In this document: one piece after another, positions 26,220-48,941 of the stretch
Position numbering within the stretch: the first letter of the stretch is position 1
How the letters are laid out: every line of letters begins with the position of its first letter
Assembly (NCBI GenBank): GCA_964566735.1
Contig: CAZMJB010000001.1
Location: 21,516-85,515 of the forward strand
Reading direction: 5' to 3'
DNA from: an uncultured Candidatus Saccharibacteria bacterium
GTDB taxonomy: Bacteria > Patescibacteriota > Saccharimonadia > Saccharimonadales > Saccharimonadaceae
DNA length: 64,000 nt
Made by a program: the position numbers and the translations under genes
The notes under the pieces: generated by a model
What the model saw: only the letters and a program-made list of their open reading frames with translations
Database searches by the model: none
What the model was told of the DNA's origin: nothing

Positions 26220-26545
26220 AAAATTAATGGGGGTCGACGCTACAGTGAGCGCCGACCCCCCGTGTGACGAGCCGATTTCTCAGACGCCCATAGGCAATAC
26301 CTCCAGGGTTGGGTGGTGCCCTCGGAGCCGAAAAGTGTTCACAGTTCGACCCCGAGGGGGCATTGCGCGCGGTGTCGCGCCCGTTATCTCAGTCTGGTGC
26401 AGTCTGAAACCCTCGTTGTTGCGAGCGCCCTTAGGCGCTGCGGTCGTTCAAGGGGACCGCTCTCTACTCAGAGAACGAGCGCGATGTGAATCGTCAATCG
26501 TTCAACTCTATACTGCAGAGTTGCTGGTGACTTTATCCGCTTAAA
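26218..26545 (-). ncRNA. Unassigned ~320-nt GC-rich structured RNA candidate with its own promoter and terminator
   Basis: There is no credible ORF on either strand. The promoter is at 26550-26578. Local helices are at 26503-26523, 26461-26474, 26424-26439, 26365-26380 and 26301-26327. A 12-bp-stem terminator at 26229-26260 is followed on the minus strand by ATTAATTTTTT. Confidence 0.5.
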
Positions 26546-45938: not shown

Positions 45939-46592
45939 CTATTCGGCTTTAAAAGAATTCTCTTCGCGCCACTTCGCGATTGCCGCGTGGTTACCACTTA
46001 AAAGTACCTCAGGTACCTTCATGTCGCGGAACTCAGCTGGCTTTGTGTACTGCGGGAACTCTAAAGTCTCACCATCAGAAAAGCTTTCAATTTCAGCGCT
46101 TGCCGCGCCGCCAAGTACACCCGGGATAAGCCGGACAATGCTATCAATAATCGTCATAGCCGGAAGCTCTCCGCCCGTAAGGACATAATCGCCCACACTT
46201 ACCTGCTCATCAACCAATGTCACGATGCGCTCATCGTAGCCTTCATAGCGGCCACAAATAAAAATGTAGCCATGATCTGCGTCTGCATAGCTTTGCGCGG
46301 TCGCCTGCTTCCAGCGCTGGCCTCGTGGCGTCATGAGGAGCACCTTTGCTGTTGGGTCATTTGCTTTTGCAGCTTCGACGGCAGCAAATAGCGGCTCGGG
46401 CTTCAGAAGCATGCCATCACCACCACCATACGGCGTGTCGTCTACTTGCTGGCGCGGGCCAATACCATAATCGCGTAAATTAATAAGTCCAAACTCAACA
46501 GCGCCCTGGTTCTGGGCTTTCCACATCATTGAGCTATTCAGCACGCCTTCAAACATTTCCGGAAATAGCGTGACTACTTGGATTTTCTTCAT
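45939..46592 (-). CDS. trmD: tRNA (guanine37-N1)-methyltransferase
   Basis: 217 aa with DDTPYGGGDGMLL and FICGRYEGYDERI. Confidence 0.95.
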   Translation of the reverse strand: MKKIQVVTLFPEMFEGVLNSSMMWKAQNQGAVEFGLINLRDYGIGPRQQVDDTPYGGGDGMLLKPEPLFAAVEAAKANDPTAKVLLMTPRGQRWKQATAQSYADADHGYIFICGRYEGYDERIVTLVDEQVSVGDYVLTGGELPAMTIIDSIVRLIPGVLGGAASAEIESFSDGETLEFPQYTKPAEFRDMKVPEVLLSGNHAAIAKWREENSFKAE

Positions 46593-46599
46593 CTGTACT

Positions 46600-46628
46600 A
46601 GTGTACGCTACATTGATATTTTTGTAAA
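46600..46628 (-). promoter_or_regulatory. Putative leaderless-type trmD promoter, TTTACA-17-TACACT, with the -10 ending 7 nt before the ATG
   Basis: On the minus strand TTTACA is at 46628-46623 and TACACT at 46605-46600, with the ATG at 46592. It overlaps the divergent promoter at 46613-46641. Confidence 0.5.
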
Positions 46629-46641
46629 TATGTGCTATAAT
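46613..46641 (+). promoter_or_regulatory. Near-consensus promoter, TTGATA-17-TGc-TATAAT
   Basis: TTGATA is at 46613-46618, followed by an exactly 17-nt spacer ending in TGC, and TATAAT at 46636-46641. Confidence 0.6.
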
Positions 46642-46673
46642 ATATGTATCAGTCCCCTACGACAGGAGTTGTC

Positions 46674-46931
46674 ATGAGTTCTGCAAGCACCGTGCTGATC
46701 GGTTTCTACACCGTTTCGGCCGAGTACATCGAGGCGAGCGACATCGTCCACACCGAGGCCGTCGAGGACAGCACCCCCGACATGCCGCCCACCTACAAGA
46801 TCATCTACACCCTCGAGGGATCCGACGAGGAGAGGATCGCATGGGTGGACCTGACGTGGTTCAACACCCTGAAGCCGTACGTGCTGCGCTACAGGGCTCG
46901 CCTCAACGCCGAAGCTGACGCCCTCGGCTGA
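46674..46931 (+). CDS. High-GC3 acidic hypothetical protein (85 aa), apparently xenologous
   Basis: An AGGAG RBS lies 5 nt before the ATG at 46674. The ORF-track start at 46644 falls at the predicted TSS. By my hand count about 75 of 85 codons end in G/C, unlike the neighbours. I recognise no family. Confidence 0.6.
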   Translation: MSSASTVLIGFYTVSAEYIEASDIVHTEAVEDSTPDMPPTYKIIYTLEGSDEERIAWVDLTWFNTLKPYVLRYRARLNAEADALG

Positions 46932-47097
46932 CCACCATCGCCGATACCGTCGGCAACGCCCCCAACGAAGAAAGTCTGCTGTTGAGCTGCAATACGCACT
47001 CCGGCTTGTCGCTCTTCAGGGGGCTTTCTTTATTGGGTCAAAAATTGCATTTATGATTTAAAGTATCCGCGCCCCGGGCTTTTCTATTCATAACGAT

Positions 47098-47135
47098 GTA
47101 TATAAACAAATAGACACCCTGAACGGGGTGTCTAT
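47098..47135 (-). terminator. Intrinsic terminator after the KH-domain gene
   Basis: The minus strand reads TAGACACCC, loop cgttca, GGGTGTCTA followed by TTTGTTTATAT. Confidence 0.6.
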
Positions 47136-47222
47136 TATACACATAAGCTCTCAACAAAATGTGGTTTTGTCGCTCGCATGAGCTGTTCTCGCAGTTCAAA
47201 GTGTGTTCTGAACTGCTTGTGA

Positions 47223-47624
47223 TTATATATCAAGATCGTCGAGGTCTGCAAGCTCTTGGCGAGTCTTTTTTGTGTATTCAGAACTATTGTCCACAGCTTC
47301 ATCTGTTGGACTTTCCACAGCTTCTGGATCTGTGGAAACTTGAGCATCTTCACTACTAAGGGTAGCGCCGGTTTGGCCATCGTTGTTTACAATCTTCAAG
47401 TTGTAGCGTGCATCATTCTTGGTACCAAGTGCGCGAAGAAGTGTACGGAGGCTCTGCGCGGTTACCCCGCGCTTACCAATGACACGTCCAAGGTCGTCTG
47501 GATTCACCGTAAGAGTAAGCAACACTCCCTTTTCGTCGATAACGCGGTCGACGACAACGTCGTCTGGATTTCCAACGACTGATTTTACGATATATTCTAT
47601 GAACTGCTGGTCTATGGTCGACAT
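47223..47624 (-). CDS. KH-domain RNA-binding protein (YlqC-like) with an acidic C-terminal tail
   Basis: The start is moved to MSTIDQQ, preceded by GAGGAGGGG. The KH motif VIGKRGVTAQSLRTLL is present. The gene occupies the usual position after rpsP. Confidence 0.85.
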   Translation of the reverse strand: MSTIDQQFIEYIVKSVVGNPDDVVVDRVIDEKGVLLTLTVNPDDLGRVIGKRGVTAQSLRTLLRALGTKNDARYNLKIVNNDGQTGATLSSEDAQVSTDPEAVESPTDEAVDNSSEYTKKTRQELADLDDLDI

Positions 47625-47729
47625 GTGGCCCCTCCTCGTGTCTCTGTCAAAGTATCGTACCTTTATTGTAGCATAGCGCTCTTTTTTGCCTACAATAAGC
47701 GTAAGCATTATTTTACCCCTTAGAGAGTA

Positions 47730-47758
47730 TTGACTTTTAAGCTATAAAGTGATATAAT
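47730..47758 (+). promoter_or_regulatory. Consensus-like promoter, TTGACT-17-TATAAT
   Basis: TTGACT is at 47730-47735, followed by an exactly 17-nt spacer, and TATAAT at 47753-47758. Confidence 0.6.
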
Positions 47759-47838
47759 TCAGCTCAACACTTTCTCTACTGGTAACAGTATGAGGTCGTG
47801 GAAGCAGTACCTGTCGGAAAAACTACGAAGGGACCATC

Positions 47839-48408
47839 TTGTCCAACAAGAACGACCGCACGCAGCGGCCGACCCAGAAGTACAGCGCCGCCGAGCTCAA
47901 GGAGCTGGCGGTGGAGGCGATCAAGATCATCGGCGATGCCACGGAGCCGGACGAGACCATCTCGTTCATCTCCCGGGAGACCCTGAAGATCTACATCGCG
48001 CTCCTCGGAGACGGGCGTCGGGCGAACGCCCGCAAGCACGCCGGCGTCGCCATGCAACAGATGCAGCAGAAGCTCAAGGCCGAGCGCTACCCGCACGCGA
48101 CCTGGCAGCGAGGCTGCGCCAAGGCGACCATCAACAGCGCGCTGGGCTACGCCCGCCGCGTGCTGAAGGGCAAGCTGCGTCACGAGGACGCGGTCGGCCT
48201 GATGAACCGCACCATCGAAGACCGCATCGCCAACCGCAAGGCCTTCGAGGAGAGCGGCGCCGGCTACGACGCGCGACGCCGTGCCAAGAGCGGCATCAAG
48301 ACGGAGCGCCCCTCCGCCCTCCAGGGTGGCCAGCGCTCGCGCAACACCCGCATGGAGCCGCACAAGCGCAACAAGCGGCACGCCGCGGCGTGGAGCGACG
48401 CCGCCTAG
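47839..48408 (+). CDS. High-GC3 basic hypothetical protein (189 aa, TTG start), apparently xenologous
   Basis: Among the overlapping ORFs in this GC-rich block, this is the frame I examined codon by codon and the only one whose translation is not Arg/Gly/Pro-dominated. The first 30 codons after the start all end in G or C (hand count). The C-terminal third is Arg/Lys-rich. I recognise no family. Confidence 0.6.
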   Translation: MSNKNDRTQRPTQKYSAAELKELAVEAIKIIGDATEPDETISFISRETLKIYIALLGDGRRANARKHAGVAMQQMQQKLKAERYPHATWQRGCAKATINSALGYARRVLKGKLRHEDAVGLMNRTIEDRIANRKAFEESGAGYDARRRAKSGIKTERPSALQGGQRSRNTRMEPHKRNKRHAAAWSDAA

Positions 48409-48455
48409 GCGACCACCGACAGGGAATCTCGATTCACCCCCCCGAGTCGAGCTAC

Positions 48456-48498
48456 AGCCCCCGGGACCCACGAGGTCCTGGGGGCTTCCCTCTTTTTA
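48456..48498 (+). terminator. Intrinsic terminator of the high-GC ORF
   Basis: AGCCCCCGGGACC, loop cacga, GGTCCTGGGGGCT followed by TCCCTCTTTTTA. Confidence 0.65.
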
Positions 48499-48510
48499 TA
48501 GACTTTTTAC

Positions 48511-48542
48511 TAATAAAAAAATCCCGCCGAGATGGCGGGATT
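48511..48542 (-). terminator. Intrinsic terminator after rpsP
   Basis: The minus strand reads AATCCCGCC, loop atctc, GGCGGGATT followed by TTTTTTATTA. Confidence 0.65.
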
Positions 48543-48560
48543 CATAACACGTGAAATAGA

Positions 48561-48941
48561 CTATTCAGCGCTTTCAGCAGGTGCTTCGGCTTCTTCTACA
48601 GGAGCTTCTTCAACTACTTCTTCCTTTGGTTGGTTCTTGCGGAGCTTTTCAGCGTTACGGATAGCTTTTTGCTTGTCGCTTGAAGCTTCTTTTACCCACT
48701 TAGGGAGTTTCACACCAGCTTCCTTGAGGAGCTTGGCAACACGAGGTGTTGGTTGCGCACCGTTGTCGAGGTACTTTTGCGCTACTTCAACTTGAACGTT
48801 AGCATCTTTAGTGTGTGGGTTGTAGCTTCCTACGTACGCAACAACACGACCGCTTGATGGGTGGCGTTGTGACTCTTGTACAGCGAGGCGGTAGGTTGGG
48901 TAACCGGCGCGTCCTACGCGTTGCAAACGAATTGCGAGCAT
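48561..48941 (-). CDS. rpsP: 30S ribosomal protein S16 with a C-terminal extension
   Basis: MLAIRLQRVGRAGYPTYRLAVQESQRHPSSGRVVAYVGSYNPH is the S16 core. A Lys/Glu/Ala-rich tail follows. Confidence 0.95.
   Translation of the reverse strand: MLAIRLQRVGRAGYPTYRLAVQESQRHPSSGRVVAYVGSYNPHTKDANVQVEVAQKYLDNGAQPTPRVAKLLKEAGVKLPKWVKEASSDKQKAIRNAEKLRKNQPKEEVVEEAPVEEAEAPAESAE

Follow-up and report, generated by a model that had tools for sequence, protein, structure and literature searches.

The window analysed here is a 64,000-nt stretch of DNA from an uncultured Candidatus Saccharibacteria bacterium (contig CAZMJB010000001.1, positions 21,516 to 85,515), in which a small gene for a 189-aa protein lies between a KH gene and rpsP, at window positions 47730-48498. 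The GC content of the window is 48.5%, its S16 protein, encoded by rpsP, is 76-92% identical to those of Saccharibacteria (TM7) metagenome-assembled genomes (MAGs), and the genes that flank the unit are trmD, the KH gene, rpsP and rnc. As the original prediction had it, the unit lies on the forward strand, antiparallel to rpsP and the KH gene on the reverse strand, and every element that had been named, i.e., the promoter with its 17-nt spacer, the leader, the TTG start codon, the open reading frame (ORF) and the terminator, was located where it had been placed (Table 1). With a near-consensus extended -10 promoter, a leader, a TTG codon behind a good Shine-Dalgarno (SD) sequence, two 3' hairpins and a terminator, the unit appears to be transcriptionally self-contained, and with a single ORF between its own promoter and its own terminator it is monocistronic. 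A consensus scan of the surrounding 3.5-kb region detected eight promoter-like sites compared with 2.3±1.5 in shuffled sequences, and the only two sites matching the consensus at 11 of 12 positions are the promoters of this unit and of a second high-GC unit between the KH gene and trmD.

Table 1. Predicted features of the unit, its slot edges and the overlapping ORFs, in window coordinates
Feature	Position	Strand	Description
KH (khpA-like) promoter	47660..47695	-	TGCTACAAT, extended -10; scan site 47692-47665; slot edge, back to back with the unit promoter
Unit promoter	47730..47758	+	-35 TTGACT (47730-47735), 17-nt spacer, -10 TATAAT (47753-47758), TG-extended; 11/12 in the consensus scan
5' leader	47759..47838	+	about 75-80 nt; read from the sequence, aligned among homologues
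Small leader hairpin	47777-47790	+	TACTG-GTAA-CAGTA
Conserved leader box	47806-47817	+	AGTACCTGTCGG; from the alignment of homologues
SD sequence	47827-47833	+	GAAGGGA, 5 nt upstream of the TTG at 47839
Coding sequence, 189 aa	47839-48408	+	TTG start; GC3 0.95, dN/dS 0.40, homologues
3' box	48416..48423	+	CCGACAGG, complementary to the 5' box CCTGTCGG (47810-47817); kept in all five homologues
First hairpin of the 3' untranslated region	48427..48451	+	CTCGA...TCGAG, C7 loop; read from the sequence
Intrinsic terminator	48456..48498	+	13-bp stem (10 G-C pairs, 48456-48486), 5-nt loop, then TCCCTCTTTTT
rpsP terminator	48519..48543	-	slot edge, back to back with the unit terminator
254-aa ORF, frame +2	47790-48554	+	without purifying selection
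231-aa ORF	47776-48471	-	without purifying selection

The gene belongs to a small family, known so far from beside rpsP in related genomes. An exhaustive HMMER search of 1.8 billion representative proteins and a profile search of 5.8 billion clusters yielded three proteins each, and the family comprises five members: the window protein, P0001 (locus L001), P0002 (L088), which truly begins at a TTG lying 21 codons before the called ATG, P0003 (L089) and P0004 (L014). L001 to L007 are one relative assembled independently seven times (Logan runs SRR247914xx-6xx). All five genes adjoin rpsP in convergent orientation, and the four with enough contig sit between the KH gene and rpsP. The identity to the window protein is 80, 28, 27 and 22%, while it is 85-96% for the core proteins, with 85-92% for rpsP, KH and trmD in the loci where the 189-aa protein has 22-28%, and the 189-aa protein evolves roughly ten times faster than its neighbours. 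Among the invariant residues, W89 and C93 belong to the motif H-x-[TS]-W-[QE]-[RH]-x-C, and the tail contributes P158, S167 and P174; all five proteins end in Ala-Ala (SDAA, RKAA, SKAA, RRAA and ANAA). No family relative was detected among INPHARED phages or PLSDB plasmids by tblastn, in IMG/VR, or in GTDB genomes scanned with two peptide patterns; apart from L014, which came up later via rpsP, the GTDB representatives apparently lack the window's own species or its cassette. The leader pattern AGTACCTGTCN{9,16}GAAGG, run over metagenome contigs and IMG/VR, was too unspecific, and no family member, rpsP or KH is encoded in the 240 loci retrieved. A 142-aa slot cargo protein of L017, which also ends in RRSRRRAA, was rejected as a sixth member (hhalign probability 0.3%). 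The contig of L014 (DATMTU010000052.1) was deposited as part of a Dongiaceae (Alphaproteobacteria) MAG, carries a Saccharibacteria-type rpsP (92% to the window's), KH and the family member, and is very likely a mis-binned Saccharibacteria contig.

Around the drifting coding sequence, the untranslated regions (UTRs) form a shared shell. The -35 and -10 hexamers are unchanged in all four homologues with upstream sequence; they are followed by the small hairpin, whose position is kept while its sequence varies, by the box AGTACCTGTC(R)(R) and by ACG(R)A(R)GGA as the SD sequence. Past the stop codon lie C(Y)GACAGG(G)AA, a hairpin that all homologues have here but whose sequence varies from one to the next, CACAGCCC and the terminator, whose motif GGGGCTTCCCTCTTT is kept. 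These UTR motifs have changed less than the coding sequence. In a set of 90 Saccharibacteria sequences, exact copies of the box AGTACCTGTC and of the 3' boxes occur only in family members and are absent from other genes inserted in this region, thus they are part of the gene rather than a recombination site of general use. For the same reason, and with no integrase-like ORF in the neighbourhood, an integron-type or other site-specific cassette was rejected. The 5' sequence CCTGTCRG and the 3' sequence CYGACAGG are complementary, with a G:C pair in the window and L001 where L088, L014 and L089 have A:U; 97% of the alignment cells are paired, with one covarying pair (G:C↔A:U), and in the minimum-energy folds of the full mRNA (~720 nt) the two boxes pair in three of four homologues. 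A helix closing the mRNA between its 5' and 3' ends (CCUGUCGG/CCGACAGG) is plausible, if unproven.

A codon-by-codon comparison of the window with the 80%-identical ORF of 188 aa at the same place in L001 gave a ratio of nonsynonymous to synonymous divergence (dN/dS) of 0.40 in the claimed frame and of 0.76-1.67 in the other five, and the differences fall 24/16/39 on codon positions 1/2/3, which marks the 189-aa frame as the coding one, under purifying selection. The TTG-TCC start (GTG-TCT in L089) stands at the aligned position in all five members, 5-8 nt past the SD sequence, with an additional in-frame ATG three codons upstream in L014. The frame and start codon originally proposed are thus supported, and the long ORFs in the +2 frame and on the other strand are, as had been supposed, by-products of the GC richness. 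It is extremely unlikely that the functional product is instead a structured RNA or a protein read from one of these ORFs, the 231-aa antisense or the 254-aa +2 one: such ORFs do exist, in all five homologues the mRNA is slightly more stable than its codon-shuffled controls are (z from -0.2 to -2.3) and the UTR motifs diverge less than the coding sequence, but beside the selection pattern, the GC content of the three codon positions suits the claimed frame only, the +2 ORF lacks a conserved upstream ATG, which in L088 meets a stop after three codons, and no Rfam family reaches its gathering score. An assembly chimera or a contaminating island of high-GC reads, which the abrupt change of composition at the block borders might suggest, has virtually no chance of being correct, since the same unit with the same junctions recurs in the seven independent Logan assemblies of the relative, homologous units occupy the same place in three assemblies from other projects, and the ORF adjoins its AT-rich promoter and leader without a break and is conserved together with them.

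The composition of the gene is extreme. Its GC contents at codon positions 1, 2 and 3 (GC1, GC2 and GC3) are 0.63, 0.48 and 0.95, against a GC3 of 0.41-0.52 in trmD, KH, rpsP and rnc, and the first 32 codons, two more than had been claimed, all end in G or C. Across the window's other non-overlapping ORFs of 100 aa or more, 63 in number, GC3 is 0.468±0.049 with a maximum of 0.585, which places the 189-aa ORF at z≈9.8. When the whole window was scanned independently of ORFs, a sustained GC3 of at least 0.85 was observed only at this ORF and at a smaller block at 46668-46931, and three stretches of 120-147 nt barely reached the cut-off. The five family members have a GC3 of 0.95, 0.95, 0.74, 0.93 and 0.86 on contigs of 0.46-0.51 GC where the flanks suffice for the estimate, although their silent sites must by now be saturated. 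In the comparison of the window with L001, dS is 0.29 for the 189-aa ORF, 0.61 for KH, 0.43 for rpsP and 2.4 for trmD, and dN is 0.115 against 0.027-0.054 in the neighbours, i.e., 2-4 times higher. Among the strictly synonymous third-position differences of the gene, 11 of 24 are C↔G exchanges, where the neighbours' changes away from G or C lead one to expect 17% (binomial p≈1e-3; Fisher p=6e-5), and in the ORF of the companion unit between KH and trmD it is 19 of 36 third-position differences. The persistence of high GC3 in such distant members together with this excess suggests a property that is maintained rather than an un-ameliorated relic, with some force removing GC→AT changes at silent sites; by these comparisons, the G/C-ending codons appear to be actively maintained.

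None of three candidate causes accounts for the bias. GC-biased gene conversion in its simple form was rejected since the bias spans the gene exactly from start to stop codon, while KH (0.44) and rpsP (0.41) lie in the same putative recombination tract. Native translational optimisation does not fit either, because the highly expressed rpsP has a GC3 of 0.41 and no other ORF of the window exceeds the maximum given above. Selection for mRNA structure leaves a mild signal in the five homologues (codon-shuffle z = -1.25, -2.12, -2.29, -0.19 and -1.21), which is insufficient as a cause, and a literature search for GC3-rich or host-like genes in Saccharibacteria returned nothing relevant. In the region 45939-48941, divergence from L001 is mosaic, with dS reaching 1.9-2.9 in two membrane-protein genes beyond trmD and dropping across KH and rpsP to the values given above, which suggests recent recombination of the segment from KH through the cassette to rpsP or strong codon constraint on KH and rpsP.

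The place of the gene is itself a site of recurrent insertion. In relatives free of inserts, the extended -10 promoter (TGnTACAAT) and leader of KH come directly after the rpsP terminator, and the T(G)nTACAAT motif is kept upstream of KH in relatives with and without an insert. Among 32 related loci containing rpsP, KH and trmD, the gap between rpsP and KH measures 163-233 nt in 19 and 399-2259 nt in 13, and the gap between KH and trmD ranges from 145 to 1658 nt. Each ORF in the inserts runs opposite to the operon and has a TTGAC(A/T)-17-TAnAAT promoter of its own, in most cases with TG, as well as a hairpin terminator, and L022 has three such units in tandem. GC3-rich cargo was found in L010 (68 aa, GC3 0.93), L018 (185 aa, 0.94), L017 (142 aa, 0.83), L022 (74 aa, 0.99; 207 aa, 0.87; 206 aa, 0.81), L014 (180 aa, 0.86) and L012 (146 aa, 0.73), all in genomes of 0.46-0.52 GC, and cargo of ordinary GC3 in L020, L076 and L083. 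An ORF-based scan, which replaced a sliding-window scan of the related loci that was too noisy, identified 12 ORFs of at least 60 aa with a GC3 of at least 0.8 and a coding-like GC pattern in 781 kb of Saccharibacteria DNA, nine of them in the two slots. Outside the slots, L011 2539-2844 (-) with a GC3 of 0.89 and L018 8325-8537 (+) with 0.85 may mark further cargo sites. None of the slot cargo proteins tested matched Pfam or PADLOC; seven cargo proteins other than the 189-aa one had no match in family and similarity searches, and the protein of L018 found only itself in the 5.8 billion clusters.

In the companion unit of the slot between KH and trmD (46613-47030; L001 2130-2640), the window and L001 agree at 76-92% over the promoter and last 72 nt, while the coding part cannot be aligned as DNA and the proteins are 36% identical, with a dN/dS of about 0.8. 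Its 85-aa family has a third homologue in L015, and in L001 a second small ORF overlaps the stop codon of the first. Co-occurrence of the two high-GC ORFs, which the original prediction had raised, is not strict, as L088 has the 189-aa gene without the 85-aa family and L015 the reverse. A toxin-antitoxin pair was rejected because the unit is monocistronic and the acidic 85-aa ORF does not accompany it in these two loci. At the KH gene, the mechanically called ORF of 161 aa begins at an upstream ATG, the conserved ATG being at 47627 (-) (MSTIDQQF...) behind GAGGAGGGG, and the KH promoter lies within the apparent 5' extension of that ORF (47627-47708, -).

For the protein, a first AlphaFold2 run with two sequences was too poor to use (mean predicted local distance difference test score, pLDDT, 58), and a run with five sequences reached a mean pLDDT of 76, and above 90 in its core. 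Residues 21-140 mostly score 88-97, with a dip to 76-78 at 51-70, and helices at 17-33, 39-56, 64-81, 88-109 and 115-152 form a predicted five-helix bundle; the remainder is disordered, with pLDDT values under 50 starting at residue 156. Counted from residue 141, the tail, i.e., the C-terminal 45-50 residues, carries a net charge of +9 to +11 in all five members, while that of the bundle varies from 0 to +9. The helical part and basic tail read from the sequence earlier are thus borne out by the model, and so is the absence of a recognised family: the protein has no match in Pfam, PHROGs, PADLOC or a profile search of PDB sequences, and with this model Foldseek found only generic helical bundles without significance (PDB, best E 0.18, TM-score at most 0.47; BFVD, best E 0.008, TM-score 0.23-0.30). 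With five members and no fold match, the protein family is new. H-NS, HU, Lsr2, TetR and similar DNA-binding families were rejected, with Pfam below threshold, an empty PDB profile search and the same best Foldseek E of 0.18. A loose likeness to the H-NS N-domain and to the Avd bundle of diversity-generating retroelements (DGRs), as small basic all-helical bundles, is seen in a sub-threshold Histone_HNS_N hit (16.9 bits, L088) and in Avd TM-scores of 0.24-0.35; these hits are not significant, however, the family has no recognisable DNA-binding domain and no DGR components lie nearby.

On balance, we favour, with some reservation, the view that the unit is a resident, autonomous and fast-evolving accessory gene of the Saccharibacteria (TM7) lineage in a permissive slot between rpsP and KH, not a fresh foreign insertion. 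The original prediction had taken the block as alien, recently imported from an actinobacterial host or phage, with the donor's codon usage not yet ameliorated, and much would fit an unsampled donor of high GC: the actinobacterium-like composition with a GC3 of 0.95 and a GC2 of 0.48, the patchy distribution among relatives, the other cargo ORFs being singletons too, the lower divergence of the segment from KH to rpsP than of trmD between the window and L001, the enormous diversity of small actinophage genes, and the lifestyle of cultivated Saccharibacteria, which grow on Actinobacteria and show natural competence (Wang et al. 2023, PMC10633639). This part of the prediction did not hold up, and we regard such an import as unlikely. 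No donor homologue was found in the 1.8 billion representative proteins, the 5.8 billion clusters, INPHARED, PLSDB, IMG/VR or the GTDB genomes, nor any homologue outside Saccharibacteria contexts in any of these collections. The deviant composition is not decaying towards that of the recipient, being retained at 22-28% identity, and the synonymous C↔G excess speaks for a force acting within Saccharibacteria. That members so diverged still have the slot in common, along with AT-rich promoter, leader and 3'UTR motifs, implies either long residence or import of whole units, and import would require an unsampled donor pool and movement of the whole unit including a Saccharibacteria-type promoter.

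The role of the resident gene can be outlined only as a best guess, held with low confidence, as that of a short-lived, tail-mediated nucleic-acid-binding factor in some conflict. The unit occupies a permissive slot whose edges are the rpsP terminator and the KH promoter, in a cluster whose two slots, rpsP-KH and KH-trmD, repeatedly contain orphan genes across Saccharibacteria, each with a promoter and terminator of its own. A strong promoter, a weak start codon and possible closure of the mRNA by pairing of its UTRs would probably give production in bursts. Judged by its composition, the tail would most likely dock on RNA or DNA as its polyanionic partner within the epibiont. The ssrA-type degron ends in ..LAA-COOH and is recognised by ClpXP, and because the Ala-Ala end of all five members resembles it, the protein may be short-lived, although the residues before Ala-Ala are polar or basic and not Leu. 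The speed of evolution and the hotspot location suggest a role in conflict, with the host, phages or other elements, rather than in housekeeping.

Another reading, to which we give little credence, directs the protein to the actinobacterial host, with predicted export through, e.g., a type IV secretion system (T4SS) and the polybasic C-terminus as the translocation signal; in its radical version, the mRNA or DNA itself would be exported. C-terminal signals of VirB/D4-type effectors are positively charged and unstructured. The disordered tail of the 189-aa family, kept while the folded domain drifts, has such a predicted structure, and host-like codon usage with very fast protein divergence beside slowly evolving neighbours would reflect a function in, or an arms race with, a high-GC host. 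The strong promoter and the strongly basic C-termini of several of the diverse orphan cargo proteins (L010 ...ARKRKK, L022 ...KAKKSVR, L017 ...RRSRRRAA) also agree with it, as do reports that a cultivated Saccharibacterium cannot grow as an epibiont without its T4SS genes, the T4SS substrates being unknown (PMC12102498). On the other hand, the protein has no signal peptide, some slot cargo has normal GC3 or an acidic C-terminus, and protein export alone would not select G/C-ending codons. Moreover, the Patescibacteria system is of the monoderm conjugation type with unknown protein signals, and its coupling protein, the usual recogniser of such signals, was reported as non-essential for epibiotic growth in S. 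epibionticum (PMC12102498). Very unlikely in our opinion, though it would account for the codons, is the further idea that these are kept because the gene or its mRNA is transferred to and translated in a high-GC actinobacterial host, or its product acts there, the slots being an arsenal of host-directed orphan effectors with polybasic export signals and strong promoters.

Several points weigh against the resident gene and the role sketched for it. The family rests on only five sequences, two of them close relatives, and the function is wholly inferred, without a clue from family, fold or context; the basic tail is equally what a secretion signal would resemble. Maintained GC3 could also be obtained by repeated re-import from an unsampled high-GC pool, and dS, low in KH and rpsP against trmD, gives a hint that the whole segment recombined recently, a complication for the neutral baseline behind the C↔G test. 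The pairing of the 5' and 3' boxes comprises 8 bp with a single covarying pair, was equalled by 41 of 500 shuffles and is not part of the minimum-energy fold of L014.

Morons, in the concept of Juhala and Hendrix, are reportedly autonomous promoter-ORF-terminator units between two adjacent phage genes, often of deviant composition. The window unit is similar in its strong promoter, single ORF and terminator, its position between genes adjacent in relatives, its deviant composition and its patchy occurrence. Unlike a moron, it is found not in a prophage but in a cluster of core chromosomal genes for ribosome biogenesis, in an epibiont with a reduced genome, and its compositional bias appears to be maintained by selection, not inherited from a donor; there was no PHROG match, no tblastn match in phages and no relative in IMG/VR, and the flanks are the core genes named above. 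Hotspots of accessory gene integration flanked by core genes are known in bacterial chromosomes. The two slots resemble them, being flanked by conserved genes, with cargo that differs between lineages and mosaic divergence, in naturally transformable organisms (PMC10633639), but their cargo consists of single tiny orphan genes and not of islands, most of it GC3-extreme and opposite to the operon, and no integrase or mobile-element genes lie at the slots.

Other observations concern RNAs and annotation. The 3'UTR of the unit (48423-48490, +) resembles the actinobacterial small RNA 6C (RF01066) in its two GC-rich hairpins, the first with a C7 loop, and scores 28.7 bits over the full model; with a gathering threshold of 47, an E of 0.3 in a 2-kb search and no match at E≤1 in the 3'UTRs of L001, L088, L089 and L014, 6C RNA was rejected and the resemblance is most likely due to chance. 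Elsewhere in the window, a 63% GC element of ~290 nt between divergent genes (26227-26520, +), without an Rfam match at E≤1 and with a fold z of -2.35 against shuffles, may be an unannotated structured RNA. A Pfam match of PF18352 on the window S16 (E 0.06) is noise.

Saccharibacteria are obligate epibionts with tiny genomes, and their host-interaction genes are largely unknown. In these genomes, two intergenic slots of the conserved rpsP-KH-trmD cluster serve as landing pads for strongly promoted orphan genes, whose rate of evolution exceeds that of their neighbours by about an order of magnitude, with UTRs that remain conserved. The extreme bias towards G/C-ending codons that many of them carry, maintained at this locus against the mutational and compositional background of the genome and with no identifiable donor, is hard to square with the slow amelioration of foreign DNA. 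If the bias does come from mRNA selection or from use in a high-GC host, it would provide a testable route to the effector or regulatory biology of Patescibacteria, and natural transformation makes recoding or tagging of such genes feasible in cultivated strains. Even in a conservative reading, the GC3-rich, antiparallel and monocistronic slot unit is a simple genomic marker for lineage-specific accessory genes.

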